Positions 28,580 through 59,283 of a stretch of DNA of 64,000 nucleotides are shown here, one piece after another (the first letter of the stretch is position 1; each line of letters begins with the position of its first letter). Where the stretch lies: the NCBI GenBank assembly GCA_008632985.1, contig QPGO01000128.1, forward strand, positions 124,001 through 188,000, in the 5' to 3' direction. The DNA is from Psammoneis japonica (lineage: Eukaryota). Made by a program: the position numbers and the translations under genes. The notes below the pieces were generated by a model. It ran no database searches. It was not told the DNA's origin and saw only the letters and a list, made by a program, of their open reading frames with translations.

Positions 28580-28900
28580 CATCCCTGCTCATTTTTCACG
28601 AGCTCTGGTTTGCACACGAACCACATGCTGGTTCCTGTGCATTTACGTGCATTTTACACCAGTCGCATCGTAGAGGGGTGTTGTTCGCCGGCCCTGACGA
28701 ACTCTTTCTCAGACACAAAATGCTTTTCACGACGTTCCGGCACATGACTGCCGGCTCGGTGGACACTGTTTCGAGTGCGTTTTCACGTAGAGCCTGCTGC
28801 AGATGTAGGCATTCAGATTTAATTCGGTACAAATCTACGCAGCATTTTGCGTAGGGTGCACACGAACCACCAGGTGGTTCGTGTGCATAAGCAGGGTTAA
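28580..28900. mobile_element. possible piggyBac-like terminus with palindromic subterminal repeats
   Basis: Perfect 14 bp-stem hairpin tgcacacgaaccac-cag-gtggttcgtgtgca (28857-28887), degenerate copy at 28611-28641, ending ...AGGG TTAA. Confidence 0.45.
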
Positions 28901-38160: not shown

Positions 38161-39572
38161 ATGCCCACTCATGTCCTTATTCGAGTTCCTCCACCGCCGC
38201 AAAGCGAAACTGATACGCCGCGTGCTCGTCGTCCTCGGCTAATCCACAAGAACGATCGTGATGATGCTTTTCAGCATGAGAACCAGCAGATCTCAGAAGA
38301 TGGGGCGGCAGCGGCTGCACAACCCCGATCTCCCATTACCAAGACACCCATTGCAGGCGTGGTTGGATTTCGCTATTCGGTGCGTCATACGAGCAGCAAT
38401 CGATCGTTGCAGCAGCACGTGAGTCGTGATGATATTCGGGGTTCACCACGATTGCAGGGATACCTCTTCATGTTGGTGGCAAGTATTGTCATGCTTGTCT
38501 CGGCCGTCCGCTTTTATATCGATGGTGATGATAAAGATAGTGTTCAAGTCGTACGACGAGAACGTGGGTTAGAAGAAGACGATGAAAACAACGACAATTT
38601 ATTTACTCATACATTTGGTAAGACGATTCCTGGAGACAGAATCGATTCGTGGAAAGACAGTAATTTATTTTTGTGATGCTGGTAGCACTTACTCTTTGGT
38701 GTTTTTTATTATTCCTGCAAGGCTCTCGTGTACTTACATGGAAGTTAGATGGAGCCGTAGTCGTGTCGGCTGCAGCCGTGGGTATCTCAGTCTTTGTCTT
38801 GGTAGTTCACTTTGACTCGGTCTTGCTTCCACAATTCTGGAAAATTGTCTTTCGCGATGGCAGTTACTGGGAACTGGCCCTATTGATTGGATTGCTACTC
38901 TTTTGGATGGGCGCCCTGCACATTTGTACCAGTGCCTTTTCCGTCGGTGAGGTTGCTCCAAACGTCTACTTTACTACATGGATTGCCTTTGCCAGTGCGT
39001 CTGTCAATATTGGTATGTGGAGGAGGGGTGCCGACTTGCCGCTGCTGATCGACATGGTTCGAAACGACAAGCGTGAAACTGTCTATGGGTGGTGTACTGT
39101 CCTGGTCTTTAGTTTGGTGACGGCGTGTTCCATTCTAGAACTCTACGCGAATCGGGATGAATTGGAAATCTTGCTGGAAGGGGTCGTTCAGCAAGTACCG
39201 CAACGCGAATGGAACAAGGCATTGGGAACATCCTTTTCCGCCGTGGGTGTGTCGCTCTTGAATGCTGTTTGCGTGCATTATCTTTCTGACAAGCCCCTGA
39301 GAATTCGTCTTTGTCGAGGCTGGATACTGAACTTGGATTGGAGACAAGTGGAAGGCTTTTGTGTCGTATCCGTTCTGGGCTTGTTTTCGTGGTTTATCTA
39401 TGAGTACACTGGCGTCAATAGCGCTCTCAGTGGTCCATCCAATCCATACTTTGGTTCGTGGGGCGTTTGGTTTTCGTCAGTTCTGACCTTTGGAACGTGG
39501 ATGCGTGAAAACAAACATATTGCGTTTATTCTCCGCAATTCTGAGGATGACACGACAGAAACGGAGAGCTAA
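38161..39572 (+). CDS. multi-pass membrane protein, paralogue B; intron 38618-38721
   Basis: Spliced frame is intact; multiple hydrophobic segments; homologous to 36230-37791. Confidence 0.85.
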
Positions 39573-39843
39573 TAGAGTATTGATCGTATGAGCCTCTACT
39601 TGTTGGCGGGGTGTAAGTATCGACAAGTGCTATCTAGAATGAGTCTATCTGCATCAAAGGCTCTTTCCAAATGCATTGCCTTGAGCTAGAGTACCACCTG
39701 TTCCTGGTGTTGGATAGAGGAGCTATTGAACTACTGCTGATACGGAAGCGTTGAAAATCGGTCCGTTTCATGTATGAGTAGGACGAACAAAGAGTTTGTA
39801 ACGGTGATATCACCAATGGCTAACTTATATCGATAAACCTACA

Positions 39844-41140
39844 TTATTTTCCTCCCTCACCCTTTAGCATGCGCTGTGCCACGGCCGGGGTTAAATACAG
39901 AAGCTTTGAATCGGGAGAAAACATCATTGCCCACATGTGATTGGGCTCTAACGAGGGAACTAATTCAGCTTGAGGCTTATTGCCATCCTCATTGAGATGA
40001 GCCTCGGCGTCTTCGTCTTCACCTTTATGCAACAGGAAACCAGCCATGCCCGCCACAAGCGTGGCTGCATCTGAAATGTTGCTCCAAGCCAAGCTGACTT
40101 TCATCGGGACTTGGTTCCAAACACTCAGCTGCTTCTTGACATAGTCTGACAAACCACTAAAATCGAAACCATTTTCCAAATCCTCTGCCAGAATCTTCTG
40201 CCTGCCCGTCAGGAAAGGGATCAACCACCCGTTGCAGGCCTTTGCTTCCATTGGCTTGCCCGGAAAGCTGCCTCCACCACCCACACATTTTGCACCGGTG
40301 GTGTCCATGAGGATGTTGATCCAGAACTTTGCCACCGCGGGATCATCAGGATTCTTCCTGGCATTCGCCAGATTTGCAAAGACATCCGAGACAGTTTTCC
40401 AAAAATTCGGTCCAAGGCCTGCTTCGGTTTGTATGGGGTTCAAGATCTGGCGGACTCACTCCAGTTTGGTTGACAGACTCTCCCAATCCGCAACACTTCC
40501 CGACATTTCTAGCCCACGCAGACCACAACCACAGCAACGCATCTCGTAGGTGAAGAATTCCTGCAGACTTCCCATCAAGTTAATCTGAGATGCAATCTTG
40601 TGCTCAGCACCAGACGTGCCAAAGTCATTCTGCATTTCTTTTGCAAACTCGGGCATTTTTATCTTGTTCCCAATTTCATGGGCAAATGCTTCAAACAAAA
40701 AGTCGCAGTCTGCATCGCACATGATGTGGCAAGGGAGGTTGATGACAGCAAAATTTGTTGTTGGCTTTTCCAGAATCAATGGGGTGCATCTTGTTGGGAA
40801 TGAGAAGATTTGCCAACCGCTCTGATGGCAGCTTTTGCGTGGGGGTGTCTTTTTCCAAAGCTGCTGCCAAAGATGGCTTCAATCACACATCAAGCTTCAA
40901 ATCAACCAGCACATCACAGTTTCCTTTTTTCTTTGCAATCCTGCGGCTTGCTGCTGTGGAGGACAACTCAACTCAACACAACGATTGCCAGTTGGCACTG
41001 GTGCCCTTTGCGGACTTTGGCCCCCATTGGACCCGACCGGCTGGGGTGCAGAACTCCTTGAAGAAAAGTTCCAGACCGGCATCTAAGAAACAAAAACAGA
41101 AGAAGGGTGTTTTGCGATCGTGCTCAACCCGAAGTTGAGG
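39844..41140 (-). pseudogene. DUF4419-like protein gene, partly eroded
   Basis: QINLMGSLQEFFTYEMRCCGCGLRGLEMSGSVADWESLSTKL motif; in-frame TGA at 40456; 5' half reads PCHIMCDADCDF, consistent with Tyr->Cys. Confidence 0.65.
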
Positions 41141-42129
41141 AGCAACACCGTCAGTTGTCCATTTTGTCAAATTGCGACAGGTCCCTGGTGCAGATTGCCA
41201 CAGTGTTGCCGATGGGTTCCAGTCCCAGCTGCCGAATCAAAAAATTTGCGACATCGCAAAATTTGCGACAAATTCCGAATCCCCGCACAATCATCGTGCG
41301 GCGAGTCGAGAAACAACCCTTGTCACCCTCCAAGATCATCTTTGCGACGCGGCCAACATCCTCTGGTGCAATTCAAGGTGCAGGCGTTCTTTCTACTTCG
41401 ATTAAGAAAAGGCACGATGCACGAGAAATGACAAAAAATCCTTATTTTCAAAGGAAATTGCCTTCTCGTGACAGCAACTCATGCCGACGCATCGCAAGAT
41501 TTCAACAAAAAATGACCTTTTTGGATGATTGCACCGCCTTTCCTCACAAACAAAACGTCGTGTGGCTCTTCATAATGATGACAATCTGATTGGTTTGTTA
41601 TTTCATGTCACTTGCAGACCTTCGGTTGTCGAAACAGTGGCATTTGCTCATTTGAAGCGAAAAATGAAGCACTCAGAGACCTCGCACGTGCTTTCATCGT
41701 GAAAAAATTCGAGCCATTTGTTTTTATGAATTAATTTGCGATTCGCAAATTTTGCGTTTCAGCAGCCAGGTGGGACTTTTTGTGACATTTGCCCCGTAGA
41801 ATTCTGCGTGCGAGCTCTGCAGTTCGTACTGTGGTCAATGAACACACTCATCTTCGACACAAAATGAACGGCCAAGTTTGCAGTGCATGTGTCTCTGTTC
41901 GTACTCGCAGTTTTGGACAATGCGCCTGCCCTGCGCCATTCTTAAGACACTCGAGAATGGCGCAGAAGAAAAAAACATTAAAAGTTGTTGAATGGATCAC
42001 CTGACAATTGCACTGTAAAATGATGCAAAATTTCGCCAAAATCACGTAGAAATGTGCGTGCGCGACATGCGACGTGATTCAAAAAACTGTCAATGTCACA
42101 GTTCAGTGGCACCATGCGAGGTCCCACCT

Positions 42130-45100
42130 AGACCTGGAACACGTCCGCCGGTGAAGCCGTCGGTTTTCCAGACATGTCAAGTGGGTCCCTGGTGCAGCTG
42201 ATGAAATGGAGAGTTGCCAATCTGCCACGATTGTCAGGAGTCAGAATGCTCCTGTGCTTGTGCCTCAACCTCCTGTTCCTGAGAAATGCAACGACGTTTG
42301 GAGGGAGGTCTTACATCGTCATTGCAATTGTTTGTCGGATCAAATTCCTGAATCCTGGGTTGACTGTTGACCCATCTGCGCAGAGCCGCTCGTTCGTCCT
42401 GGAGTTGCACACCGACCCCAAGTTTGCGGGACAGCCGTTCTCGGGCTGCCACAATGTTTGCCAGCCAAGAGCGTTTGAAAGAGGTGGACTGAGAGAGCAG
42501 GGAGACAACGTGACCGCAGAAATGACAGGCAAATTCCCCTGGGAGTCCCTCTCAGCCTCGCTGAAAATGGCGGCGAATCCATGAGTCTAGCTTGTCTCTG
42601 GCTGGCTGGCTTGCTAATTTGAGGATGAGCGGCAGCATTTCTGTGTTCCCACAACCGTTGCGTTGTTCCAACAAGTTGGTGGACCCATCTTCTGACCCAT
42701 TTCGAACCCAATTTTCTAGAGCCTCGGAGCCGAAAATGTTCCTGTTGTAAAAGAGCCCACTCCTTTGCCACACAGCCTTCCAGAAGTCTGTCCCAGCCAA
42801 TGATGCACTGTGACTCAACTGCCTGATGAAGGATTGGGCTAGCGCGAGGGTCGAGGCGGATGTTGATGTGTTGATGACTGCGCCAGGCGGTGAGATGTTC
42901 CTGGATGGTGCTCGCCAGGCCAAAAGCCGCATCGTTGTGATCCACCCAGCGGACATGTTTGCGCAAGAGCGACCTCAACTTGTCCGCAGCCTCTGAGCAG
43001 GTGACAACGTGCGCAGTGTCTTCGTTGTCAGCATCACACCGGGGGCATCGCAAATGATCCTGAACCTTCCAGCGTTTCAGCCATTTGCCCACTCCACACA
43101 TTCCTGCCACGTGTTTGGCCATCCACCGTCATTTGCCGATGCCAAGATTCTTGGCGACTGTCTCGATGACGTCCCAATCGATCCTGCGGAAGCCCTCATT
43201 CGCAAAGCATCGTTTTTGTTCGATCCAGCATTTTGCCAGCCGTGTGCCGTGAACATGATGATGCAGCCGCTCACCAAGCTTTGTCGAGATCTTGTGTCCT
43301 CCAATGAAAACACCCCACATTTCATCTTCGATGTCAAACTGTCGTGGAAGCCTTTCCTGAGGGTCCAGTTGAGCTTCATGTTGCCATCGTGCTTTAGCCA
43401 GGTTGTCCATCTCAACATTCAATCTTGCCCATCTGTCGAGTCTTCTGCATCGTAGAGTGTCTTGATGTCCTTTGACCCACCGGAATTTCCACCGCAGTGG
43501 GCTCTTGGCAATTTTTTCCTTGATGGCGCTTAAAATGTCAAAGTCGTTGGACCGGGCAGTGATGGGAAGAGTGGGGTCCGACGATTTCCGTGGGGCTTGT
43601 TTGCCATCACAGGCGATTTCAATTGCTCCTTGTTGAACATTGTGATGCAGACAGATGTCTTCAACCGTGCAGACAATGCTGTGGAGACCTGCTGTCTCCG
43701 CTTGGCAGGAATTGGCATCACCAGGGTGACCTGGCAAAATGTTGGCACCCGTCACTGGGTGAGTTTCTCGTTCCCCTCGGACAGTGAATGCCGATGTTGC
43801 AAGATTGTCTTTGGCTGACCCATCACTGACCGCAATGGCTGCGCCTGACTCGGTGGCATTGGCAACATGCAGTCCATCATCATCGACAGTGACTTTGTCG
43901 TTTGCCCACTGTCGGGCCGGAGGTCGTTGACGGAGTCGCTGAAGAAGATTGATCGGACCTGGAGCTTCCTGTCTGGGTCTCGTGCTGGTGGACCCCGAGT
44001 GACAAATTCCCCATCTGTCCTTGCCTTTGCAGCATGCGCGAGTGCGTTGAATGTCGTTGGGCGGTTCGGTCAGTCCAGACGGAACAAACCGGCAATGATG
44101 ATTCCTCGTTTGCCTGCTGCTCGACAACCTGAATGAGTGCCACAGGTTGTTCTGACCCCATTGACACAGACGCTGTTCCGACAGAGAATGGAGCCACTGC
44201 CAGTGGGAATCGTCAACTCCAGCATCGGGAAGCCAGTTCCCTGAGGATTGGTGTGATCGCCTTGCATGGACACTGGTTGCCCATGTAAAGCAGTGCCTCA
44301 GAGCAGTGCGCCACGTTGTCCAATCTGTGGCCTTCGGACATTGTTGCGGGGGCCATTTGCATTGTGGCCAAAAAAAGGTGTCCTTCTTTCCATTCCACAT
44401 GTCACAAAGAATTTCACACCCGTTGCCAGTTGAGATGTCAGCAAGTGTTGCGACATTCAGGAAGGCACGGCACCGATTGAGAGCCTGCAGCTTGGCCCCC
44501 CTGAAGCCTTCATCTGCAAATCTTTCCATGAGAAACGCGTCATTCTCACGTGAGAGAGTCAGCGACGGTGCATCCTCGTTGTTGCTGATGTTGTGGCTGG
44601 ACAGACATGTCTGCAGATGCTTGACCCATGACTTGGCAGCCAGGCATCCAATTGTTTGTGACATGAGCTCGCAAGGAAGGAGCTTCCGATTCCGATTTCC
44701 AGCTTGTGTTTCTCCACGAGTGCTCGGAGAAGTTGTCCCGTGATCGTGTCTGCTTTTCCGTGTTTGACAAATGCCTCGACGTGTTTCCTGTACATGGTGG
44801 AGGCAATCCATTCGAATCCGAGGCCTTGCAGTCGGATCGGAACCGCGCACAACAGCACGGGGAAAGGAGCTGCACAGACCCAATCTCGGAAGGCCTTGTT
44901 TGAGAAGTGGTGCTTCGACACATCTGCATTCTTTCGACGACAGAGTGAGGGCAAGGAGAGGGCAGTTGAGTGCCTTGCAGACTCTTTGAGTCAGGGCAAG
45001 CCACGCATCAGCCTTAGAAAGATGACCCGATCGAGCCCGATCCGCCCAACCTTCAGCGTGTTTCCGGAGTTCTTCCACCGCAGTCCTGCAGTTTCCATCG

Positions 45101-45360
45101 GGGGCCAACCACACTCCTGGAGTTTTCTTGGTGATGGAAGGCGAAAGTCGTTCAATCAGGTGTCTTGTTCCCTCGTCATCCTCTGCGCACATCTGTGGGT
45201 CATCCTGATCATCGGGGTTGCTCTCCTTGTGAACGCACTCCCATCTGCCATTGGTCCATTTGAACTCTGTTAAATGCCACCAGCATTTGTCCGGGCGGGT
45301 GTCGCCTCCCGCAACTCTCATGAAAAGAGTCCGTGTGACTCTACGCCAGACTGGCACTCA
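42130..45360 (-). mobile_element. non-LTR retrotransposon (LINE) ORF2 3' part with RNase H and Cys/His knuckle
   Basis: GGDTRPDKCWWHL.EFKW.NGRW, AIAVSDGSAK, IEIACDG, FRWVKGHQD, LNVEMDNLAK, CPRCDADNEDTAHVVTC; no Tyr in the 742 aa ORF. Confidence 0.88.
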
Positions 45361-45364
45361 CAGA

Positions 45365-48300
45365 CGACTTTGGTCCTGTGGCGCCAAATGGATGTGTGAT
45401 GTCCGACGCATGATTGCGACCAGTGCATTGGACATGGGAGGATGAGTCCCAGAAGAGGAGGTGACAGGTTCAACACCCGACATCTCTTCCCTCTCTCTCT
45501 TTGATTGGCATCAACCTGTGCATTGCCACATGCCTGTGGCAGAGTTCCCACACGAAAAGAAGTGCATTGGCCGTTGGCTCGGCGCAGCTGACAACTGCAC
45601 TGACAACATGGCATTCATCATTTTGCCCGAATCAGGCAAACCCATCATTCGGAAGGATGTGTGGGCCACACCGGAGGATGACCTTAAAACTCCGGCGATC
45701 CAGACGGATCTTGCATCGGTCGATCAAGCTTTGATCAAACGGCTCAGCATCCCGGAAAAGGGTGCCAGTGCTGACTTCCCTGAACTCCCTGACGACTTCA
45801 TGGACGAATGGGACGATGCCGTTGAACCCGTGGAACCCGACGCTTCCAAACTGGAAGCTGATGAGCACACCCCGGAAGGGCTAGATGAATGTCTCACAGC
45901 TCAAGTCATGTTGCCACGAGGAGGCGAGCTGACTCATGCCAGGGTCATTGCACGCAAGTGAGACAGCGACGGGGTGCCTGTTGGCACTGGGAACGACAAC
46001 CCTGTCCTAGACTCGAGGACATGCGATGTGGAATTCCCTGACGGATCCACCGATTCCTTTGCTGCCAACGTAATTGCAGAGAACCTGTTCACTCAGATCG
46101 ACTCTGAAGGGAATGCCTGCCAGATCATGAAGGAAATGGTTGATCACCAACGTGATGCCCATGCCGCAATGGCCAATGATGGGCACACAACGACTGAGAC
46201 TGGCAGGCGTGCTCCCAGGAGGACGACCGCAGGCTGGGACCTGCAAGTCAAATGGAAGGATGGGGCTGCATCCTGGGTTCCTCTCAAGGATTTGAAGGAG
46301 TCCAATCCAGTCAAGATTGCTGAGTGCGCTGCAGCGAACAAAGCAGTTGGTGAACCAGCCTTTGACTGGTGGGTCCGAGACGTCTTGCGTCGCAGGTCAA
46401 GGATCCTGAAGAAAGTCAAGTCACGTTGCTGGAAACGTGCGCACAAGTTCGGAATTGAACTCCCAAAATCTGTTGAGGAAGCCATGGAGATAGACAACAG
46501 AACGGGGACCGACTTCTGGTTCAAGGCCATTGAGAAGGAAATGCGTGACGTCATGCCTGCGTTCGAATTCCGCGATGACGACACTGTGCCGGTCGGGTGC
46601 AAACACATTGATTGTCATGTGATCTTTGACATCAAGAGCACCCTCCAACGTAAAGCGAGGTTCGTGGCCGGAGGCCATCAAACCGATCCACCCAAGGAAT
46701 CGACACATTCCAGCGTGGTGTCGCGTGACAGCGTTAGGATGGCATTCACTGCAGCAGCTCTGAATGACCTGGAGGTCCTGAGTGCTGACGTTCAGAATGC
46801 CTGCTTGAACGCACACACCAAGGAAAAGTGTTGCACCACTGCTGGCCTGGAATTTGGGAAGCAGAACGAGGGAAGGCCGGTGATCATTGTCCGTGCCTTG
46901 TGTGGTCTCAAGTCTTCAGGTGCAAGATTTAGGGAACATGTGGCAGCCACTCTGCGGGACGCTGGGTTCGAGTCTTGCAAGGCTGACCCGGATGTCTGGA
47001 TGTGGGCTGTGGTTAAGCCGGATGGCTTCAAGTGCTGGGAACATGCACTTGTCTGTGTGGACGACTTGTTGTGCGTCTCCCATGAACCTCAGAAGGTCAT
47101 GGATTGTGTGAGCTCCAGGTGCACGCTCAAGGACGGAAGTGTCTGCGAACCGGAAGAGCACTTGGGCGCCCAGATCAGAAAGTGCCAGCTGTCTGACTCG
47201 GATGGCAAGACACGCTGGGCCATGTCCTCTGACCTTCATGTCAAAAAGGGCATCAGCTGATGTTGAATTGGAGCTTAAGAAAACTGACAGGCATCTTCCG
47301 ACGAAGGCGTTGACGCCCTTGAGCTCGGGACATGGGCCTGAACTGGACGGTTCACCTGAGTTGAATGCCAAAACGGCTAACTGCTGTCAAGGCCTTGTTG
47401 GTGTGCTGCGGTGGGCAGTTGAACTGGGGCGAGTGGACATTTTTGTCGCTGTCTCGCTCATGTCCTCCTGCTTGGTGGCACCACGAGTTGGACACCTGGA
47501 CGAGGTGCTCCATGTCTTTGCATGCTTGAAGGCTCGCTCCAAGTCTGCGCCAGTGTTCGACGACACTGAGCCCGTCTTTGACGGGAGTCACTTTGCCAAG
47601 TGTGATTGGGAAGAATGTTGCCCTGGCATGGCTGAACCAATGCCGCCGAATGTGCCGGAGGCACGCGGGAACAGCGTGACCACCACTTGCTTTGTCGATG
47701 CTGATCACGCCGGATGCCGTGTGACGCGCAGGTCCCACACTGGGATCCTGACATTTGTCCAATGAGCGCCCATCTTGCATTGCTCTAAGCGGCAGAATGC
47801 CGCAGAGTCCTCTGCTTTTGGGTCGGAGTTCGTGGCCATGAAGACTGCAGTGGAGCAAATCGAAGCCTTGCGTTGCAAGCTTCGGATGCTCGGAATCCCC
47901 CCATGGATGGGGCCACTGACGTTTTCTGCGACAATGAAGCTGTCTTCAAGAACTCAACTAAACCGGAGTCCACTTTGAAGAAGAAGCATGATGCAATTGC
48001 CTGTCACAGGACTCGTGAGGCACAAGCCGCTGGAACAGTGCGCATTGCTTGGGAAGACGGATGCACGAATCTGGCGGACGTGCCAACCAAGTTGTTGCCT
48101 GGACCGAAGCTCCGGGAAATCACAAGTCATGTCCTGTGGTGAGTCCCAAAAGGGGACAAACCAAACGGGTTTGCCGCGCAGGTGCGGCTTTTCCCACCCC
48201 CAAAACACAACTGCCACCCTGGAATGGGGCAGCATCAGGTTGCATTTGTCTGTCGATCTGACCCAAGCGGAGCCAGTGTCAGTTCGAGGGGACTGAATAA

Positions 48301-48400
48301 ATGCTGATGTGCTGTCACGAATGTGGGCAGTTTATGCACTGTTGGCAATTGGTCCACTGTCACTTGATCAGTGGCCCCAGCAGCGCAACATCTCACAATT
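45365..48400 (+). mobile_element. Ty1/copia (CoDi-like) LTR retrotransposon, 5'-truncated: integrase tail, RT, RNase H, PPT and start of 3' LTR
   Basis: TGSTPDIS, RKARFVAGGH, SSVVSRDSVR, DVQNACLNA, ALCGLKSSGA, VCVDDLL (YVDD), FVDADHAG..TRRSHTG, FCDNEAV, NLAD..TK; gaggggac then TG at 48294. Confidence 0.93.
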
Positions 48401-48404
48401 CTAG

Positions 48405-49430
48405 AACCTGTTGATGCTGTTCAACACTCTGTCTTGTCTTGCACCCAATTCTTGGCTGTCATGGCAGCATTTGTTCAGATCCATGGTCTCATGCTCACAT
48501 TGCAGTCAGACGGGTGACGCAGATGCGACAGGTGTTCTCTTGCGCACTGCGTCGCTCCTGGTGGAAATTCATGCGATCCATCCAGAACAGCATTGGAGTG
48601 GGGGCCAACTCCAAGAAATTGCACATCATCAATGAGAGGCTCCTGCACAAGAGCGGTGTGATGCGTTTGGTGAAGTCTTGACTTGCAGTCTTGAAGCGCT
48701 GGAGCTTCCATTTCCTCTTTTTCAGCAATCTCTTGATCGGAGCCGTCTGCTTGTTTCTTGAGGAGGCGTGTGAGTGGGGATCGGAGAGGTTTGCCGGAGA
48801 TCCAATTTGCTCTGTGATTCTGCTCCCTAGACTCTTCGCAGTTGATGAGCACTCGCAGTTGTGTTTCAGCATCAGAGTTGTTGGCTCTGGCCAGCTGATC
48901 TGCTCTTTTCTCCAGAAACTTGCGTCGGTGGTCGGGAGCGTCTTTGGCGATTGCTCGACATTCTTCACAGCGTTGTGATGGATCTGCCTCTAACTGGACA
49001 AGAGTGAGGTTGTGCACTTCAAAGTCTCTTGATTTTCTTTCCAGACGGCACATTTTCCGAGAACTGATCGTGAGGCGTTTCCATCGGCGAATTAAAGCGT
49101 GGTGCAATTCGATGCGTTTGGACGCTCGTTTGAGCTTGGGAGACCAGGACTTGCCTCCCATGCGAAGCTTTCTGCATTTCTTGTCGGCAAGCCACATGCC
49201 TTGAACTCGGAGTTTGTCAATTCTCTCCCATTCATCGGTGAGTTTGGGTTGCGGGGGACAAGTGGCCTGCTTTTCATTTCGAATGCTCCTGCTGGGAAGA
49301 TTGTGTGCTGGTGCATGGTCTTTGCGGATTTTGTTGAATCTGCTCACTGTGACTGGATCATCAAGTTTGAGTCTCCGAGTGGGATGCCTTTCGAGTTCCG
49401 GAGGAAGAGTGCCAAAAGCGGTCTGATGCT
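48405..49430 (-). mobile_element. LINE ORF2 upstream part (endonuclease-RT linker)
   Basis: RRLKLDDP, ADKKCRKLRMGGKSWSPKL, same strand as 42130-45360. Confidence 0.75.
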
Positions 49431-52400
49431 GTGGAGGACAACATTGCATGAGGGGGGGGTTCCTGCAAAGGGAGTGATTCAAGGACATTCTCATTTGACT
49501 CTTGCCGCTGCCTGCAAAGTTGCGCAACATCTTCTAAATGCAACAACTGAGTTGCACAATGATGCAACTCAATCAGTTGCAAGTTGATGGTCAGAGAGAG
49601 CAAAGCAAGTCTTGCCTGATGGAGCTGAGGTGATCAAGTCTCGTTTTGACAGGTGACAAGCTGCAGAGCAAGCTGGAGAAAGTCAATGCCGTGCACAAAG
49701 AGATGTTCCATCTGTCTGACAGTGTCGACTCTGATCAGTGAAAGTTCAGTCATGTTTTCCTGGATGATGACAATGTTCGATCATGAGGTTCTACACAAAG
49801 CAAAGGAATGTCTCATTTCCTGTCACTCTCCACCCCCTTGAATGGAGTGAGTGAATGTGGACAGCATTCAGGGAAAGAATGTGAGCAGGAACAAGCCAAA
49901 GGGCACATTCAATCATCACCCAAATTGTTTTCTTGGTGCCTTGAGTTTTTGCAAGGATGTCTCTGTGAGTTGACTGTCTGTGGGGCCCACACCAGGACAT
50001 GATGCTGGTGACCCACACAAGAGGAAAATGCTGTGACCCCCTCTCGTCAGCTGACATGTTGGCAACACTGCTCAATGTGTCATGTGCACTTGGTCTGCTG
50101 ATCATTGGTGCTCATCTGAACAGTGACCTTGTTGTCCAGAAAGAGAATGGCAGGAGCAGCAGCAAGACATTGGGGGGCTCAGTTGAGCACTTCTCTTGGC
50201 CAACCCCAACAAGGTGCAAGCGAAGTCTTGCAAGCATGGCAACATGCAAAAGTGAGCAACTGCCACAGCACTGGCACAAGCACCCATCCACTCAGACTCT
50301 GCAGAAGATGTTGTGAAAAGGGTGGAGAGAGATGGGCTGGCGCGTCAAATGTTGCCCCATTGAAGAAAATCACAGTTCCGACAGTTTTGATCTCCTGGCA
50401 CATCAGGGCAGCCCTCCTGCCAGCTCTCATCTCAGTGAACACAATGGACTCCAAATGACTGATGTTTCAAGCTTTGCAAATTGTCAACACTGGGCTCTTA
50501 GATGAAAAAACCAGATCTAAATTTTGCAGTGCCATCACTCCTTTGCCAGCTGTGCTGGTGCCGGCTGACCCACACCCCCAGCACACAGCAGTCAATTGAG
50601 GCAGGAGCGCTTGCATGGGATCAGCTGGAATGGGCATTGCCAGAAGGTGTGACACCCCGCCAAGACAACAATTGAAAAGGAATGATTCACACGAGGGATT
50701 TGTTGCATGCTTGTTGATGACAGCCACAGAAGGCACACCACAACTGTGGTGGACAATTGCACTCGGATGTGTTTTTAGAACAGTCCACAAAAGGAGCCTT
50801 GAAGGTGAGACAAAAGCAGGTCATCGGAGAAAACATTCATGGCATGTAGAAACAACACTGAGTCTTGCATGGAAAAGCTGATGAGAGCAGCAAACTGAAG
50901 ACAATCAAATGGCACCACAGGATGACTTGCGCTCTTGCTGAAAAGGGCCGCAACAGAAGCAGCACATTCGCTGCAAAGAGTGAAGTGCTTGATTGCACAG
51001 CAGAGAAAAGAAGAGAGGTTGAAGACCAATTGGCAAGGAGACAAAAGAAGCAGTCCAGTGAAGTGACACACAGACAGTCAGTGGCAACACGCAGAAACAA
51101 CACCAGATCTTGCATGGAAAAACCAATGGGAGCAGCAAATGGACGACAATCAAGTGGCGCTTGCACCACAAAGAGTGAAGGACTTGATTGCACAGCAAGG
51201 AAAAGAAGCAGCATTGAAGACCGATTTGAAAGGACAAACGTGGGCCAGCGAAGTGACGTGCAGATTGTCAGCAGCATCTGCAGATCCGTGCAGAATTTGC
51301 ACTGGAACCTGTGTGGAAAATTTTGCAGACAACAGAAAATTGTGAGAAACAACAACCAGCATGCAAGCCAACAGGTCACAACACTCATTTTGTTTTCCAC
51401 TGATGAGCTTTGCTCATCATGCTGCAACAAGGATGCACCATTGGCAAACGTGGACAGAATGGGCTTGTTGGAGCCAAATCAACACCATCTGAGAATGGCA
51501 ACATCAGCATGAGAACACGCACAGAAACACATGTGGGAGGTTGCCAGTGGGTGCTCATGCAAAAGAGCACTGGGCTCTTAGATGGATCCCAGCAAAGCTC
51601 AGCTGTCAGATCCTGGTGGCTCTGAAGACAGCCAAAGAGATGAACAAGGGCATCAAAGTCATCAATGCCAAGGCCAGCGACAGAGCCTTGGCAAGCTTGC
51701 AAGTGTCCCAGAGGATGTTTGCATGGGTGTCACAGGCAAGGCAGATGATTGAACAGAGGACAGGCCAAAAATTCAAGCCAGGGTGCTTGGCAGCAACTGC
51801 CTTGGCATCCACCTCTGACTTGAGATGACTTCTTGCCTTGGAGCACACAACGGACAGGAGCTGGTGCATCTTGGAATGCTGGGCTGTCCTGGCAGCCCAG
51901 TGCTGTGGCAAGTCATGAGCAAAGAGCAACAATGTTCAAGGGGGAAGGAGCCATCCTTGTGTCAATGGATGTGCATCCTCTGAAAAAACCAAGTCACATG
52001 GTCGCTGAACATGGCGCTGGTGCATTTGGACTTGACGAGTTGATCAAACTCATCCTTTTCAACTTTCAACATGACAATTGCCAGAGCCAAAACTGATGAT
52101 GTCATTGGCACAGAAGATCAACTTGAAACACAAGCTGTCAAGGAATTGTTGAGCAAAGGGACAAGAAGGAGGGGGGCGCAGGTGCAGACATGCAATGTTC
52201 GGAACAAAAAAGGTGCGTGCCCATCACCAAAAATCAACATTGTTGTCATGTTGTTCATGCAATGCTGACATGAAACAACTTGTTTGCTGCAAAAGAAGGG
52301 GCCAAGAACAAGCTGCAGTTGAGGTCCAGAATGTGCCACACAACCAAAAAAACAAGGTTGGTGGGAAAGCCTTGATCATCCTTGAAGCAGAGCACAGTTG

Positions 52401-54130
52401 AAACTTTTGTTGCATTGAGAGCAGTGCTCAGCAGTGTTGGCAGGGACCCAACAATCAGTGCTGTTCTCAAGATCATCATGTTGCACATTGTGAGAGGACA
52501 TGTCAGAGTCAACCATCCAGCTGCAAATGTTGCTGAGGTTGGTGTTGCTTGACAAGGGATGTTGCAGGCATGCAATCAAAGAACAGTCAAAAGGACATTT
52601 TCTTGAATTCAGAGAGAGAGAGAGAGAGAGCAAAGCAGGCCTTGCTTGATGGAGAGCTGAGGTGATCACAAATCTCATGCCAAAGAAGGGCAAGACAAGC
52701 CAGAGCAAGTGGAAGAAAGTCACACAAAGAGATTTTCCAGACATTGTGAAAGGATCAAAAGCCAGCCTCTGATCCAAAACAAAGTGGTTGACAGAGTTGT
52801 GTTTGAGAGAGCAAGGAGCCTCTCCAAGAACTGTGTCAACCCCAATCAGCAAAAGTTCAGGCAGCCATGGCTTTTTGGATGAGGGTGACAATGTCTGGAC
52901 ATGATGAGGTTCTGCACAAAGCATGGGAATGGTCATTCCCTGTCACAAGTGCACTGCAGAGTTTGCAAGACACACATCCAGTTGTGGGGCATTGCAGATG
53001 TGTGGACATGATGCTTCATGCTGTGCAAGTGCAGTTTGTGGGCACTGTTGCTGCGGGAGCTGCTCCAGTGCATGCTGTTGCTCAGCTCATTTTTTGAAGT
53101 GTCTGATTTTTGGCTTCACCATCATTGTCATCTCATGTGCATTTTGGCCATTGCAGAGAATTTTTAATCTTGAAAACAATCACAAAGAGTGTCTTTTGGG
53201 TTGGCAGCATCAAACAAACATGCACTCAGTCAGAAGTGCCACAGAAACAGAAAAAAGTGCCAATCTGTCTCCTGTGGAATGATGTTCACAACACCCACCT
53301 GCCAAGGAACAACAAGCACAAGGGTTGGAAATGTGCTCTGAATTGGAGCAATTGCAGCCAGATGCACTGCTGTTTGCTGGCATGATGTGCAGCATTTGCC
53401 ACAGACTCTGGGTTCTGATTCTGCAACTCTCACTCCAGGTTTTGTCTGACAGAAAAACTCTACAAAATGCTGCACTGCTGCAGTGCTCACACAACTTGTG
53501 CACAGAGAAACACCCAAGAACATGCCAGTTGTGTTTTCATGACACCCTTGACTTTAACCATTGTCAAATGGAAACACTCCTCATTTGCAAAGCATTGCGC
53601 TGGCATCTTGCAAATGTGCATTGACAGTTGTTGCCATGCTCAAGCAACTCCCACAAGGCAAAGCTGCTCTCAAGTGTCATCACACCATGTGCAGCAAGCA
53701 GGCATGCAAGGGTCATTGCAAGTGGTCATGATCAACATGACTAATTTGCCAATCTTTGGATGCATCATCAAAACAATCTGGGGTTCTGAACTTCTGTGTT
53801 TTTTTTTGTTGCCAGAAGCACCAGGAGCGGCATCACCTTTGTTCTTCTTGTGCAAGCAGCCTGCTTCTGACAATGCCTGAATGGCCTCCACCACTGCGTG
53901 CCATCCTTTTCCCTCAAGGTCAGGAAACATTTGTCCCAAATTCTTTGAGGAAGACATCCTTCAAACTCCTCTGCCTCACAGCAAGTGCACTGGAGCTCTT
54001 CACTCACCGGAGTGACAGCAAAATGGCAATTGCCTCTGCAGTCATCTGCTTGGAGGGCACCTGAATTTGATGCACCTCAGAGGCAGAGATGAGATGTTGG
54101 ACTTGTGGGCAGAGTCCTGGGATGTTTGTG
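49430..54130. repeat. heavily eroded repeat mosaic
   Basis: 49594-49830 resembles 52624-52945; 49434-49560 resembles 55966-56090; 50863-51040 resembles 51109-51235; both TA and CG depleted. Confidence 0.7.
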
Positions 54131-54137
54131 TGCACCA

Positions 54138-55965
54138 TCTTTCTGCGACAAGCTGCTGAGAATTCGTCTTTGTTGGTGTTGGATGCTGAACTTGGATTAA
54201 AGACAAGTGGAGGGCTTCTGTGTCACATCCATTTTGGGTTTGTTCTCAAGGTTTGTCTGTGAGCACACTGAGTGGTCCATCCAATCCATGCTTTGGTTTG
54301 TGGGGCATTTGGTTTTCGTCAATTCTGACTTTTGGAACGTGGGTGCATGAAAACAAGCATGTTGCATTTGTTCTCTGCTGTCGGAAGATGACACAACAGA
54401 AATGGAGAGCTGGCAGAGTGTTGATTGCATGAGCCTCTGCTTCTTGGCGGAGTGCAAGCATTGACAAGTGCTGTCTAGAATGAGTCCATCTGCATCAAAG
54501 GCTCTTTCCGAATGCATTGCCTTGGGCCAGAACATGCTGAAAACAACTTGTTCCCAGTGTTTGACAGAGAAGCTGTTGAGCAAGCACTGTGGTTGCTGCA
54601 GAAGCATTGGAAATGGGTGCGCACAATGTACAAGCAGGAAGAACAAAGGGAGTGCAATGCTGACATCATGAGTGGCTAACTTGTGTCGCTAAACCTGAGT
54701 CATTTTCCTTCCTCACCCTTGAGCATGCACTGTGCCATGGCCGGTGTTAACTGCAGAACCTTTGAGGTTGGGAGAAAACATCATTGCCCACATGTGATTG
54801 GGCTCTGACAAAGGAACCACTTCAGCTTGAGGTGACAACTTGTTGCCTTCCTCAATGAGATGAGTGCCGGCATCTTCGGATTCACCTTCACGCAGCATGA
54901 AACCAGCCATGCCCGCAACAAGCGTGGGCGCATCTGAAACGCTGCACCAAGGCAAGCTGACTTTCATTGTGACTTGGCTCCAACCACTCAGCTGCTCTTT
55001 TACATCCTTTGAACCACCAATTTCCATGGGCTCACCCGGCATGCTGCCTCCACCACCCACCACACATGTTGTGCCCCGTGGTGTCCATGAGGATGTTGAT
55101 CCAGAACTTTGCCACCGCAGGATCGTTGGGATTCTTCCTGGTGTTGGCCAGATTTGCAAAGACATCCAAGACGGTTTTCCAAAAATTCGGTCCAAGGCGC
55201 ATTTCGGTTTGCATGGGCTTCAAGATCTGGTGGACTTGCTCAAGTTTGGTTGACAGACTCTCCCAATCCGCAACATTTCCTGACACTCTGGCCCACGCAG
55301 ACCACACCCAGCAATGCATCTTGCAGGTGAAGAATTCCTGCAGACTTCCCATCAAATTAATCTGAGATGCAATCTTGTGCTCAGCGCCAGACATGCCAAA
55401 GTTGTTCTGCATTTCTTTTGCAAACTCGGGCACTTTGATCTTTTTCCCAATTTCACAGGCAAATGCTTCGAACAAAAAGTCGCAGTCCGCATCGTGTGTG
55501 GTGCAGCAAGGGAGATGATGGCAATGTTTTCTTTGCCTTGATGAGAAACAAACAAGTCTCTCACCTTTTGCGATGATGCACGGTTTGGCTTGGTGGCCTC
55601 ATTGACAGCCTTCGCAGTGCAACAGGCAATGGGAAACCGCCAGTCTTTGGGAGATGTGCACAGGATCTAATGGTTTTTCCAAGCTTCAAAGATGCACCCA
55701 AAGAGACCAAAATGCCAGGACAGCAAACTTTGTCATTGGACTTTCCAAAAAACCAACTTCGACGTTGGAAGTTGGACTTTCCAGAACCAACAGCGCACGT
55801 CTTGTCGGGAATGAGAAGATTTGCCAACCGTTCTGATGGCAGCTTTAGTGCAGAGGTGCTTTTTCAAAGCCTGCTGCCAAAGATGGCTTCAATCAGGCAT
55901 CAAGCTTCAAATCAACCAGGATGTCATAGTTGCCTTTTTCTTGGCAATCTTGGGCTTGCTGTTGA
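54138..55965. pseudogene. eroded segmental copy of 39281-40965 (3' end of membrane paralogue B plus the DUF4419-like gene)
   Basis: Colinear alignment: gagaattcgtctttgt, tggtccatccaatccat, gtgtccatgaggatgttgatccagaactttgccaccgc, ctgctgccaaagatggcttcaatca. Confidence 0.95.
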
Positions 55966-56829
55966 GGAGGACAACATTGTGAGAGGGGGGTTTCCTGCAA
56001 AGCAAGTGATTCAAGAGCATTTTTTCAACTCTTGTCGCCACTTCTCTCCAACTGCAATGGATTTTTTTTAGAAAAGCATGGAGTTGCACAAACCTCATGC
56101 GAGTTCAGTCATGCTGTGACTCATTCAGTCGGGAGCACAGGTGTGATGTGCGGAGCTCATCATCCGAGATGCAAATGCCTTCCACAGTCAATCACGACAC
56201 TGATCAATCAATCGCGGATGTGCATTTTGGGCATCACCACACATCGTCAAGGCATGCACCAGGGTGCCAAATGCATCATGGTTGACAAAACTACGAAGAG
56301 CAGGACTTGAGACGATGCCAGACAGTGGGTTGTTGAGAGACAACTGGCCAATGCCATTGTCGCGCATTCCATGTGGTTCGCACGCGCGGCGAGGCATGAA
56401 CTCGAGTGGTTTTTTCATGAAGGTCTCACATTTGGATGTGGTCATGTCTTGTTTTGTGCACTTTCTGCAAAGCCATGCAGAAAAACAAGGGAGTTTAGAG
56501 CCGGGTTTCAGAAAAAAAGATTTGATTTTGTGGGTCATGTTTTCGTCATTTCCTCAACACCCATCGCCTCAGCCAATGGGCCACACCCAAGCTCTTTTCC
56601 TTGTTGCACTGAGTTTGCAATTTACGTTCATGTCGACGTTTCAGTTGACAAAAATCAGACAAACAAGAGCAAATGCAAGGAGATGCGGTGGTGCTTTTCA
56701 CCTCTCAATGTGGCAAGCATTTGAGATTTTGAATGATGCAGTGTCTGAAGCATGTTTTGAACCAGCTGCAAATGACGCACATCTGACTTGCAACAGGCCA
56801 GCTTTCAAATTGTCTTCTTCCACAGAGTG

Positions 56830-59283
56830 CTGTCACGGCAGATGAGATCGCATGAGACCTGCAGAACCAATTTTGGCAACCTCGTCAGAGTCACGTTCAA
56901 GTGCATCAGAGGGAAAGCAAGAAGAACACAAAGAGCAAGACAATCACCACAATGAAATTTTAGATTCAATTGTTCAACACTTCTGCAAAGACAAACCACC
57001 ATCTGTGGAGGAGAAAGTGGAGGCAACAGTCTGAATGGCAACACCAAACATTCTCTAGATTCTCTCAGTGACGTTCCCAGGGCAAACGTCCAGCTGCCAC
57101 CGGGATGGGGCAAAACGCCGCTTGCCTTGAAATCAATCAAAACTTTTGCATTGGATGGCTCAGGTCCAAGAAGAGCAAGACTCCAGTCAGTCATTCATGT
57201 GACACCAACTCTGAAACTTGTGGATCAAGTTCTGGGTGACTTGGGTCAACTCGGGGCATTTGATCATGTGCCTCACTTTCGATCAATTGTGGCAAGTCAG
57301 ACCAATCAAACCAAAACATGCACAACCTCTTCTGACATGTGAGATCATTGCGACTTTTCTGAGCTCTGACAAAAATGCACTGTCGTTTGTTTGCTGCACT
57401 TGCAAATCTTCACCCAAGGTTGGAGAGGCACCAAGGCAGCTGGACGCCAGCATGGGTTTGCCTGTTTTTGATGAAGCACAAGAGATGGAAGGGATTGGCA
57501 AATCATCTGGCTGTGGTCTCCATGACTCAAATCTTCCAGTTGATTGTTGCCTGTTTGCAACAGCTGCACCTTGTGGGTGCACCGACAATCCACAACAACC
57601 CAGCATTGTCGGTGACAAACTTTGCAAGGATGGTTCTCGAATGCTCATTTCCAAGAGAAATTCAGAGCCCAAGAAGGATGCTGGTGTCCTCAGCTTAACC
57701 ACAAGACTCTGTTTGGACCATGCCTTGCAAAATGGATGCTGGGTGATGCTGTGAGTCAAAATGTCACCACTCCGATTGCGCTGTGTGTTTTGGATGACAA
57801 AGAAATCACTCAATTTCTCTGCAACAATCACACGGCTGGTTCAGAAATTCATTCAAAGGACTTCATGCTTCCACTCACCATCCAAGCAGCATTTCACAAA
57901 CTCAATGTGAGCCGCGCTGTTTCCTTTCATTTGACAAACTGCTGCGCATGGGCTTTTGTGCATGATGCAGAGCATCGGTTCTCAAGATGGACAATGGACA
58001 ACATCGCCGCATTTGCTGTCTGTGGCAGCTCTGACATGTCTCCTTCCAAGTGGGAAGAAATCTTGTCGAGAGCCAAAAGAGCTGCCAAATTGATTGTGGC
58101 CAATTGCAGAGCTCTGGTGACTGGTGTGGACGAGGTGGATTGGGATTTGGCGGTGATGGCCGATCCCGTCCAAAGTGCCATTGACGCTCGCCAAATGATT
58201 GGATGTGTTGGCCGGAAAGCTCCTGGCAAACAACATGGCTGTGTGCTTGCACCAGTGCCTGCAAATGGTGATGAGGGGCTCATGCAAGACAAAGGTGGCC
58301 ATGAATCTTTTGTGTTTGCATTTGATGCAATAGTCAGATTGGACATTGAATTGCGGGAGGATGTCGTGTTTGTGATTGATGAGAGTGCCAGGCTTGGAAG
58401 GCCTTTGCGTGATGCAGAGTTGCCCTCTTGGGCACTTGAATCATTCTCATGCTTCCAGACTCAATGTTCCTTGAAACAATGAATGACATCATGAATTGGG
58501 CAATCACAAAACACAAGAATTGTGAAAGTGACTGGGATCAAATGCGTGAATTGCTTTTGGTTTATAAAAAAGAGAAGGAAAAAGCAAAGTTGCACAAAAA
58601 AGCACAAAGAGGATGGAAAGAACCTTGGAGTGTGGTCAAGTGGGCAACGTGTTTTGAGGAATGCTGGGAAGCTTGACAGCACTCTTGAGGAACTTCTCAA
58701 AGGCATTGGCATTCTTTGGGATGTTCCTTTTGAACAATGGGAAAAAATGTTTCGACTCCTCGTGCAACACAAGAAACACGAGAAACATTGCAATGCACCA
58801 AGAAGGCACATGAAGAGGATGGGAAGAACCTTGGAGGATGGTTGCAAATGCAATGAGCGGCAAGAAAATCCAGCAAGCTCAAACATTTCTGTGAGAAACA
58901 GCCAAAATTTTTTGGCATTGTTTGGGGTGTTGCTGCTGAATTCGGGGAAGCAATGTTTTGACTTCCCGTCCAGTGCAAGAAATGTGAAAGGGGTTGCAAC
59001 GTTCCACGTGTTCACGTTGAGAATGGGAAGAAACTTGGACAATGGTTGGGTGAACAGCGCTCAATGAAAAAAGGTGGGAAAGCTCAACCAGGTGCTCGAA
59101 AAGCAACTCTGGGATGTGGGCATTGTTTGGAAGCCTCTTTCGCAACAATGGGAGACAATGTTTTCGCTTCTTGTTGAACTCAAGAAACGGGAAACAACCG
59201 AAGCAATGAAATACAATCACTACGAAAACGTCATTGAGAAGGATTTGCTCCTTCTGAAGGCTTGGTGTGTTGCCTTTCAGTAG
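56830..59283 (+). pseudogene. SF2 DExH helicase with C-terminal helicase-associated (HA) repeats, pseudogenised
   Basis: LPPGWGKT (Walker A, ~57094), VIHVTPTLKLVDQ, VFDEAQ..LFATAAP, TGVDEVDWD..QMIGCVGRKAPGK; repeated WEKMF.LLV..K..HCN.P..G..LG.W units; frameshifts. Confidence 0.8.

Follow-up and report, generated by a model that had tools for sequence, protein, structure and literature searches.

Systems of directed hypermutation

The closest described counterpart of the pattern considered here is the TpA hypermutation of Bigelowiella natans, a rhizarian chlorarachniophyte; fungal repeat-induced point mutation (RIP) and the deaminases of animals also invite comparison. The pattern was found in 64,000 nucleotides of the diatom Psammoneis japonica (GenBank assembly GCA_008632985.1, contig QPGO01000128.1, positions 124,001 to 188,000 of the forward strand). 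This whole stretch is referred to as the window, and all coordinates are given in it. The window contains a Ty1/copia pol remnant that encodes no tyrosine, and this loss is very probably one symptom of a regional, DNA-level hypermutation of TpA to TpG or CpA in the diatom genome.

In mutation-accumulation lines of B. natans, 230 of 231 mutations in integrated nucleocytoplasmic large DNA virus (NCLDV) and virophage sequence are A>G or T>C, all of these at TpA, with a rate of ~6e-7 per site per generation, according to the accessible part of the preprint (Mettrop et al., bioRxiv 10.64898/2026.01.13.699255). The same text describes 124 small TpA-poor, CpA- and TpG-rich clusters in the 95-Mb genome, reports that low-TpA coding sequences are enriched in reverse transcriptase (RT) and DDE domains, and proposes, without proof, an ADAT2-like adenine deaminase as the agent (bioRxiv 10.64898/2026.01.13.699255). 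As far as that text extends, the diatom locus is alike in the conversion of TpA to TpG or CpA on both strands, in local clusters of TpA depletion with a gain of CpA and TpG, in RT-bearing targets, and in the sparing of normal genes. By analogy, the process in the diatom may be of the same kind. The differences lie in the host, a diatom and hence a member of the Stramenopila, and in the targets, which are giant-virus inserts in B. natans and here are retroelements with and without long terminal repeats (LTRs), unannotated repeats and duplicated host fragments. The depletion is also deeper. The NCLDV region has a Rho of 0.45, whereas the TA-depleted blocks of the window, which make up 57% of it, have observed/expected (o/e) ratios of 0.02-0.08 for TA and 1.5-1.9 for TG and CA, far past the B. 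natans cluster cut-offs of 0.43 and 1.52. A 5'-T-A-Y-3' context (Y, pyrimidine; R, purine) is resolved here, and the words 'trinucleotide', 'context' and 'diatom' are absent from the accessible preprint text. Finally, de novo mutation was recorded in B. natans, while in the diatom the process is known from its footprint alone.

Fungal RIP, in Neurospora and others, likewise consists of dinucleotide-specific transitions at the DNA level that leave missense-riddled repeats and skewed islands beside normal genes. RIP, however, converts CpA to TpA (C>T), lowers GC and makes stops, whereas in the window TpA is destroyed, GC is raised and stops are removed. The C:G to T:A direction that leads to TpA-rich repeats was not seen, and the blocks have changed in the opposite direction. 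ADAR and APOBEC enzymes of animals are comparable in that they cause deaminase-type, context-dependent hypermutation in integrated retroelements, with a 5' U preference in the case of ADAR. They differ in acting on an RNA or reverse-transcription intermediate and on one strand of retro-copies; in the window, both strands, non-retro duplicates and the DNA between elements are hit, and the preference is for a 3' pyrimidine. No restriction to retro-copies or to a transcribed strand is seen, as the two outcomes are symmetric in a directly comparable duplicate (TG 18, CA 17) and the depletion is continuous across elements in both orientations. No report of TpA-directed hypermutation in a diatom was found in the literature, subscription journals not being covered, and the B. 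natans preprint was the sole match.

TA-depleted blocks in the window

Segmentation of the 64,000-base window by a two-state hidden Markov model, together with a 1-kb dinucleotide profile, reveals six TA-depleted blocks separated from seven normal segments. The blocks comprise 36,668 of the 64,000 bases (57%) and have lost ~90% of their TA, with 134 TAs in 36,668 bp of block sequence versus 1125 in the 27,332 bp outside. In the 1-kb profile, TA o/e is 0.00-0.18 over large parts of the window and 0.4-0.8 elsewhere; by segment, it is 0.02-0.08 in blocks and 0.54-0.77 in the normal segments. The blocks, to which no strand applies, are as follows.

584..4731: TA-depleted block 1; TA o/e 0.06, CG 0.22
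10915..13194: TA-depleted block 2; TA o/e 0.03, CG 0.31; between two normal-TA glycosyltransferase paralogues
16753..18479: TA-depleted block 3; TA o/e 0.08, CG 0.70
22295..28643: TA-depleted block 4; TA o/e 0.02, CG 0.19; holds a CCA-adding enzyme pseudo-copy at 27270-27702
40027..59211: TA-depleted block 5, 19.2 kb; TA o/e 0.07, CG 0.53, TG 1.61, CA 1.60; holds the copia remnant, a long interspersed nuclear element (LINE)-like element and a duplicated host segment
60364..63342: TA-depleted block 6; TA o/e 0.06, CG 0.66

The dinucleotide ratios of normal DNA and blocks compare as follows, with all other dinucleotides in the blocks lying within ~17% of their normal values.

TA o/e: normal 0.58, depleted blocks 0.06
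CG o/e: normal 0.99, depleted blocks 0.44
TG o/e: normal 1.19, depleted blocks 1.68
CA o/e: normal 1.21, depleted blocks 1.66
AA o/e: normal 1.16, depleted blocks 1.22

The GC content is 0.49-0.53 in blocks versus 0.44-0.48 in normal segments. The normal segments hold genes for a proteasome AAA ATPase, two glycosyltransferase paralogues, an FG-GAP protein, a laminin-G protein, a GST and the CCA-adding enzyme, and ordinary intergenic DNA keeps its TA as well (o/e 0.69-0.71 at 19-20 kb and 34-35 kb). The only Pfam-recognisable sequences within blocks are copia, a weak zf-RVT match, two DUF4419 fragments and a helicase-associated (HA) domain.

Loss of TA is also visible in conceptual translations. 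Open frames of 120 aa or more number 89 in blocks, where they have 20 Tyr among 15,815 residues (71 frames have none), and 42 in normal DNA, where they have 230 Tyr among 9,034 residues. In the blocks, TAA plus TAG drop from 17.4 to 2.7 per kb-strand and TGA goes up from 18.9 to 23.8. To some extent, long frames arise automatically in every one of the six phases, because TA loss strips TAA and TAG and cannot create a stop. For the same reason the open frames of the copia remnant, which a preliminary description of the locus had taken as a sign of youth, are weak evidence of it. That description, made from the sequence alone, had treated the change as an event in copia. It is right in the direction of change and wrong in scope, since the same TA to TG or CA conversion covers 57% of the window, including repeats, host-gene duplicates and, on the opposite strand, a LINE-like element.

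42340..45357, minus strand: LINE-like non-LTR retroelement fragment with a 742-aa open frame with 0 Tyr and a weak zf-RVT match downstream

The relatives of this element (150 sequences) have a mean Tyr content of 2.8%. At all four of its conserved Tyr columns it now has Cys (three times) or His (once), and of its 180 conserved columns 146 match the relatives.

Mutation spectrum in duplicated host DNA

The direction of change can be read from a duplicated host segment, one copy of which straddles the edge of block 5. The two features below have no strand.

39266..40026: unmutated part of one copy, with normal TA, serving as ancestral reference; the block edge at ~40027 lies inside the duplication
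54123..55975: TA-depleted second copy of the host segment at 39266-40967, which takes in the 3' end of a gene, a spacer and a convergent DUF4419 gene; recognised by self-BLAST, dinucleotide fates and a Pfam DUF4419 match in both copies

Because the segment takes in a pair of convergent genes together with the spacer, it was duplicated as DNA and is no retro-copy. A direct comparison of the normal copy (39266-40142) with the depleted copy (54123-55005) gives the following fates.

TA in normal copy (n=42): in the depleted copy TG 18, CA 17, TA 5, other 2
CG in normal copy (n=36): in the depleted copy CA 12, TG 11, CG 11, other 2
TG in normal copy (n=77): 66 unchanged in the depleted copy
CA in normal copy (n=50): 42 unchanged in the depleted copy

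The change thus runs from TA to TG and CA, symmetrically on the two strands, and it has acted on sequence that is no retro-copy. When both strands of the pair are counted by 5' neighbour, A>G has occurred at 35 of 43 TA sites, compared with 13 of 136 at AA, 7 of 129 at CA and 8 of 118 at GA. Where both copies are depleted (40246-40747 versus 55022-55523), they differ by 11 swaps between TG and CA, as would result if the two copies had each resolved the same ancestral TA independently. The fragment of the CCA-adding enzyme at 27270-27702, compared with the gene at 33131-33539, has converted 23 of 27 CG and 4 of 6 TA. The glycosyltransferase paralogues at 7713-10313 and 13605-16201, which are 71% identical over 2.6 kb and lie in normal DNA, served as a control and are without such bias.

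The DUF4419 gene copy at 39847-40878 (minus strand), which lies across the edge of block 5, is probably a pseudogene under erosion from the block side. Its TA is depleted in the 5' half and normal in the 3' half, and a stop interrupts the frame at 40456-40458. Contigs of a second sequence run (X2) that align to it differ by 24-30 letters per ~350, which points to an origin from paralogues.

Sequence context of the target

The TAs that survive in the blocks differ in context from those of normal DNA. Among 124 surviving TAs, with block edges trimmed, YTAR accounts for 57% versus 15.5% in normal DNA (odds ratio 7.3, p=6e-23) and RTAY for 4.8% versus 30.8% (context chi-square p=3e-28). A multiplicative model, in which the A of each strand is protected according to its own 3' neighbour, reproduces all 16 contexts with fitted per-strand survivals of 0.07 for T, 0.15 for C, 0.49 for G and 0.65 for A as that neighbour. 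As far as the sequence can tell, the target is 5'-T-A-Y-3' on either strand, equivalently R-T-A. In the direct pairs, YTAY became TG in 9 and CA in 4 cases, RTAR became CA in 5 and TG in 1, and YTAR makes up 3 of the 5 sites left unchanged. The copia Tyr codons follow suit, with Cys 12 and His 1 after a pyrimidine and Cys 7 and His 4 after a purine. Cys exceeds His because a Tyr codon, TAY, already presents the preferred motif on the sense strand.

The copia pol remnant

The element in which the effect was first seen lies in block 5, and the features that matter are these.

45317..48139, plus strand: 5'-truncated Ty1/copia pol remnant (C-terminal part of integrase, RT, RNase H), from tblastn, Pfam RVT_2, Tyr columns and codon counts
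47054..47056, plus strand: codon of the RT catalytic-box Tyr, now TGT (Cys), so that the box reads CVDD for YVDD; 119 of 120 relatives have Tyr
48143..48477, plus strand: sequence 3' of the pol stop, with a purine-rich tract and a presumed 3' LTR, ending ...TTGTTCA at 48477

The identification as copia pol, already made in the preliminary description, stands on a Pfam match and on the alignment with relatives. The open reading frame (ORF) at 45962-47260 matches RVT_2 (PF07727) with an E-value of 8e-09 and 35.9 bits versus a cut-off of 31.6. By tblastn with full-length relatives, the remnant consists of three frame pieces (45317-47257, 47244-47900 and 47900-48139) that are collinear with residues ~436-1384, the C-terminal two thirds, of a ~1384-aa polyprotein, the relatives being ~1,350-1,430 aa long. 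At E<=1e-3 the relatives number 2,317, with a top E-value of 1.6e-201 and a top identity of 69%, and the named ones are diatoms (Fragilaria crotonensis, Epithemia). Relatives P0015 and P0119 have PF00665 ahead of PF07727, the order of copia elements; the window frames gave no rve match, and the N-terminal ~435 residues, comprising gag, protease and part of integrase, are gone. The truncation lies at ~45317, where the minus-strand LINE-like fragment adjoins. At the other end, ten contigs of a DNA run (X1) depart from the window sequence after 48477, and the element probably ends there (...CA).

The remnant resembles the CoDi-type Ty1/copia elements of diatoms in its RVT_2 pol, its collinearity with polyproteins of ~1,350-1,430 aa and its diatom relatives. 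The window copy differs from them in being a 5'-truncated, frameshifted relic devoid of Tyr and at most 69% identical to a relative; it is a candidate member of a CoDi clade. The name CoDi for the Ty1/copia retrotransposons of diatoms is said to go back to Maumus et al. in 2009. The summed word depth of the copia family in X1 is 5,500-8,400 versus ~57 on single-copy flanks, which is an order-of-magnitude hint at ~100 related copia copies and no copy number. A relative from a metagenome (L001), the sole such locus found, is 56% identical, has a normal TA o/e of 0.79 and served as a control.

Tyrosine is absent from the remnant, as the preliminary description had stated. The three pieces contain 0 Tyr in 940 codons versus ~34 expected at the relatives' 3.6% (P ~1e-15), while Cys and His reach 4.0% and 3.4% versus 1.3% and 2.4% in the relatives. 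An alignment of 120 relatives yields 522 conserved columns, defined by at least 70% agreement among at least 60 aligned sequences. In the 26 conserved Tyr columns, the window has Cys 19 times, His 5 times, Leu and Phe once each and Tyr never, whereas 438 of the 496 other conserved columns (88%) are identical in the window. The proposed route from Tyr to Cys and His, through TAY>TGY and TAY>CAY, accordingly fits 24 of the 26 columns, and the tyrosine of the catalytic YVDD is among those hit. The peptide strings singled out earlier (KSRCWK, DVQNACLNA, ALCGLKSSGA, CWEHALVCVDDLL, LRCKLRM, AIACHR and QNAAESS) were all found in plus-strand frames.

Changes at conserved columns are strongly directional. 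Of 84 changed columns, 40 are explicable by a single TA>TG or TA>CA step and 1 by a CpG change. These 40 comprise 24 Tyr columns, 3 Val (GTA>GCA), 2 Ile (ATA>ATG), 1 Leu (CTA>CCA) and 10 columns where the first base of a codon, preceded by a codon ending in T, went from A to G. The Val to Ala changes noted by the preliminary description are therefore present at three conserved columns, and the Ile to Thr change that it had listed among those to be counted occurs at none of the conserved copia columns. Native Cys or His at these positions in active family members, which the description had named as the finding that would tell against it, was not found among the relatives. The relatives carry Tyr, and none of 240 examined in protein collections is Tyr-poor, the lowest Tyr content being 2.3%.

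Other lesions are present as well. Two frameshifts are small insertions, as other X1 copies lack one base at 47243 and two bases at 47897; the insertions are present in the window copy and in only some other copies. Three in-frame TGA codons (45443, 45959 and 47763) stand where Arg is the commonest residue of the relatives (98, 81 and 63 sequences, respectively), which fits stops of the CpG type, CGA>TGA. The earlier view that the frames are largely intact is only partly borne out, in view of these two frameshifts and three stops. The further claim that missense changes, rather than decay, inactivated the element cannot be upheld in that form, since the order of events is not readable and the copy is also 5'-truncated, frameshifted by two insertions and interrupted by three CpG-type TGA stops. 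CpGs are largely intact, as had been noted, with a CG o/e of 0.70-0.73 in the element versus ~1.0 in normal DNA, while its TA o/e is ~0.1. Of the 17 TAs left in the element, 15 have a purine 3'.

CpG decay and relative timing

CpG has been lost in parallel, with conversion of CG to TG or CA at 23 of 36 and 23 of 27 sites in the two pairs and a CG o/e of 0.19-0.70 in the blocks. This decay is separate from TA loss and cannot explain it, and its pattern looks as expected from deamination of 5-methylcytosine. Across all blocks, CpG survival is ~0.9 for CCGG and GCGC and lowest, 0.42-0.48, for TCGA, ACGA and ACGG, a flank bias that may reflect faster methyl-CpG deamination at AT-flanked sites or a methyltransferase preference. 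CpG loss as a second activity of the same enzyme was considered and rejected, as it shows no sharp motif; it is read as ordinary methyl-CpG decay. TA loss is saturated whatever the CG o/e of the block (0.19-0.70), which suggests that the TA process is much faster than CpG decay and that copia is younger than blocks 1 and 4.

One part of block 5 stands apart. The sequence at 41341-42608 has a summed depth of 17,000-32,000 in X1 versus ~57 on single-copy flanks and is a very abundant ~1.2-kb repeat. It retains more TAs than the rest of the block (~15 between 41394 and 42312) and may be a younger or less completely converted family.

Mechanism and rival explanations

The sequence shows the direction of the change, its di- and trinucleotide specificity, its equal action on the two strands, its confinement to domains and its effect on DNA that is no retro-copy. 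In the proposed mechanism, the A of 5'-T-A-Y-3', on whichever strand, undergoes an A:T>G:C transition. The process would act on entire silent, repeat-rich domains, which contain retroelements of the LTR and non-LTR kinds in either orientation, repeats without annotation and host-gene fragments duplicated into them. It has gone nearly to saturation (~90% of TA lost), sparing neighbouring expressed genes and ordinary intergenic DNA. By the genetic code, Tyr codons turn into Cys for the most part and into His in fewer cases; GTA, ATA and CTA become codons for Ala, Met and Pro; and TAA and TAG vanish without any stop being able to arise. A parallel, slower decay of CpG to TpG or CpA would have given the three TGA stops. 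The agent is presumably enzymatic, because near-complete, context-pure conversion beside untouched DNA is hard to obtain by spontaneous damage. Deamination of adenine to inosine would be the simplest chemistry, and we put an enzyme that carries it out in DNA at close to an even chance. The natural substrate of TadA/ADAT enzymes, A34, follows an invariant U33, and bacterial TadA reads U-A-C, both of which fit the T-A-Y rule. Candidate enzymes would be paralogues of ADAT2/ADAT3, TadA-like proteins and the deaminase-SAM-Tudor proteins that are confined to stramenopiles (Iyer et al. 2011, PMC3239186). Targeting appears to follow a chromatin or silencing state and not homology alone, because the homology of the duplication runs 760 bp past the block edge and block sequence of low depth is fully converted.

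Targeting by homology, as in fungal RIP, with both copies of a repeat mutated and the chemistry being A:T>G:C at TpA instead of C:G>T:A at CpA, would account for the repeated or duplicated nature of all that can be identified in the blocks (copia at a depth of 5,500-8,400, the DUF4419 segment, the CCA-enzyme pseudo-copy) and for the mutation of both copies in the pair 40246-40967 / 55022-55975. It is nevertheless unlikely, as the 760 bp outside the block (39266-40026) keep normal TA opposite a depleted partner, the host CCA-enzyme gene (33131-33539) is untouched despite its fragment copy in block 4, the 71%-identical tandem paralogues (7713-10313 and 13605-16201) are both normal, and the sequence at 42609-45144 is fully depleted despite a low summed depth of 117-224. 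In this single window, homology dependence of the RIP kind is not clearly supported, one duplication being mutated in only part of one copy and the paralogues not at all. A different chemistry would place the modification on thymine, with a TET/JBP-like or other enzyme altering the T of 5'-R-T-A-3', for example to 5-hydroxymethyluracil (5hmU), which is then read or repaired as C. Since TpA is its own reverse complement, T>C at R-T-A yields data identical to A>G at T-A-Y, and 5hmU preferentially replaces T in the TpA and TpC steps of dinoflagellate DNA. This base normally still pairs with A, however, and the window holds no evidence for it or for such an enzyme in diatoms, which leaves the thymine route quite unlikely. 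An error-prone polymerase could also act, if methylated repeats underwent patch repair by a Pol eta-like enzyme with its A>G hotspot at WA (W, A or T). The CpG decay in the blocks (CG o/e 0.19-0.70) implies frequent repair of T:G mismatches, and Pol eta is known for a WA>WG bias in somatic hypermutation. Such repair is very unlikely to be the source, as the half of the motif with W=A is spared (AA/TT o/e 1.22 versus 1.16; A>G at 13 of 136 AA versus 35 of 43 TA) and TA in copia is saturated (o/e ~0.1) though its CpG loss is mild (CG o/e ~0.72).

Editing of retroelement RNA before integration, by an ADAR-like conversion of A to I followed by reverse transcription, agrees with an ADAR-like A>G signature with 5' U preference, as discussed in the accessible preprint text (bioRxiv 10.64898/2026.01.13.699255), and with the excess of sense A>G (19 Cys) over T>C (5 His) in the copia Tyr codons. 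The 3'-pyrimidine rule accounts for this Cys excess, however, and the conversion is also found, with TG 18 and CA 17, in the duplicated host segment, which holds a pair of convergent genes plus spacer and was duplicated as DNA. ADARs prefer a 3' G, and the 3' preference found here (T, C >> G, A) is the opposite. Both orientations and the sequence between elements are hit within a continuous 19-kb block, and mutated CVDD copies could not have generated ~100 relatives, so that RNA editing is extremely improbable. Hardly any weight falls on a sequencing or assembly artefact, in which a modified base in repeats is systematically miscalled and TA is written as TG or CA, even though the effect is limited to domains that are likely to be epigenetically marked. 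X1 contains 68% of sampled 31-mers of 39001-48900, and two of its contigs (406 and 468 nt) match the depleted stretches 49233-49638 and 49612-50079 with 0 differences at a word depth of 36-38. A strand-dependent miscall would moreover create a two-way branch at each ancestral TA, at intervals of about 25 bases, and would hardly give contigs of this kind; indels, stops and CpG decay within these blocks attest to real evolutionary age; and the same spectrum is true de novo mutation by Illumina sequencing in B. natans, as far as the accessible text goes (bioRxiv 10.64898/2026.01.13.699255). Differences between the window and related X1 contigs are dominated by transitions (A>G 413, G>A 464, C>T 441, T>C 356, and 37-54 for each transversion), as expected if copies differ by choices between TG and CA. 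Native avoidance of TA, or selection against it, was rejected as an explanation, as the loss extends to conserved Tyr residues, the catalytic one among them, and duplicates of host genes have changed alike.

Several points weigh against regional TpA hypermutation by adenine deamination as set out above. The context statistics set surviving TAs against TAs of host DNA, the ancestral composition of the blocks may have differed, and the direct pair, which agrees with the context trend, has only 46 sites. Deamination of A at T-A-Y and a T-directed change at R-T-A are indistinguishable by sequence. X1 may be the source data of the assembly and hence no independent proof against systematic sequencing error. 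Targeting to domains depends mainly on one duplication with homology 760 bp past the block edge, and the evidence as a whole is the sequence of one 64-kb window, without an enzyme, inosine or a de novo event.

Further features of the window

Besides the elements treated above, block 5 holds a region of internal repeats at 50850-51500, on which X1 contigs go back by 171-225 bases and skip 68-195; Tandem Repeats Finder at score 80 is silent there, and long open frames with reiterated peptide motifs occur on both strands. A Tyr-less open frame at 58495-59064 (plus strand) carries the HA match (PF03457) and may be a decayed member of a multi-copy diatom gene family.

In normal DNA, the glycosyltransferase paralogues occupy 7683-10416 and 13590-16253 (both minus strand); they match Glyco_transf_28 and EryCIII-like_C, have normal TA, and are adjoined by blocks 2 and 3. 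The CCA-adding enzyme ORF at 32906-34219 (minus strand) has a best relative 64% identical and, among named organisms, its best relatives in Thalassiosira species (48-51%) and other diatoms, which points to a diatom host and not to Bigelowiella. Adjacent paralogous membrane-protein genes without a Pfam match lie at 36173-37453 and 38131-39572 (both plus strand). X2 contigs skip 36674-36784 and 38617-38720 within them, the latter bounded by GT..AG with the joint at 38616/38721; X2 is probably cDNA, and the skips look like spliced introns. X2 contigs are found on 35.0-41.3 kb and none on 42.6-54 kb, which is not counted as a sign of silence. Short tandem repeats comprise a 42-bp unit at 21164-21362 (4.7 copies, 93% matches), within the gene for the FG-GAP repeat protein, and two copies of a 66-bp unit at 7201-7330, in normal DNA.

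Significance

Repeats from which TA has been erased give rise to spurious long frames, Tyr-less 'proteins' and weakened Pfam matches, and will mislead gene prediction and the annotation of transposable elements. The T-A-Y motif provides a sharper criterion for candidate enzymes, and thousands of mutated sites per genome are available to reconstruct target choice. A natural DNA adenine deaminase, if true, would be of interest to the base-editing field. Diatoms offer genetic tools and many sequenced genomes, so that the occurrence or lack of the footprint can be compared with the sets of deaminases that they encode.

Until now, the record of directed A:T>G:C hypermutation in genomic DNA has consisted of one preprint on one chlorarachniophyte, to which the diatom adds a second host, a new target class and a sharper motif. 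The diatom footprint suggests that the process is no peculiarity of one species or of giant-virus inserts. More tentatively, diatoms may possess a natural double-stranded DNA adenine base editor that serves in genome defence, reads 5'-T-A-Y-3' and is directed to silenced repeats, where it would turn practically all target As into G and so remove the Tyr codons and the TAA and TAG signals of transposons. Together with the rhizarian footprint, it could represent an ancient editing immunity across the Stramenopila, Alveolata and Rhizaria (SAR), with a chemistry opposite to that of RIP.

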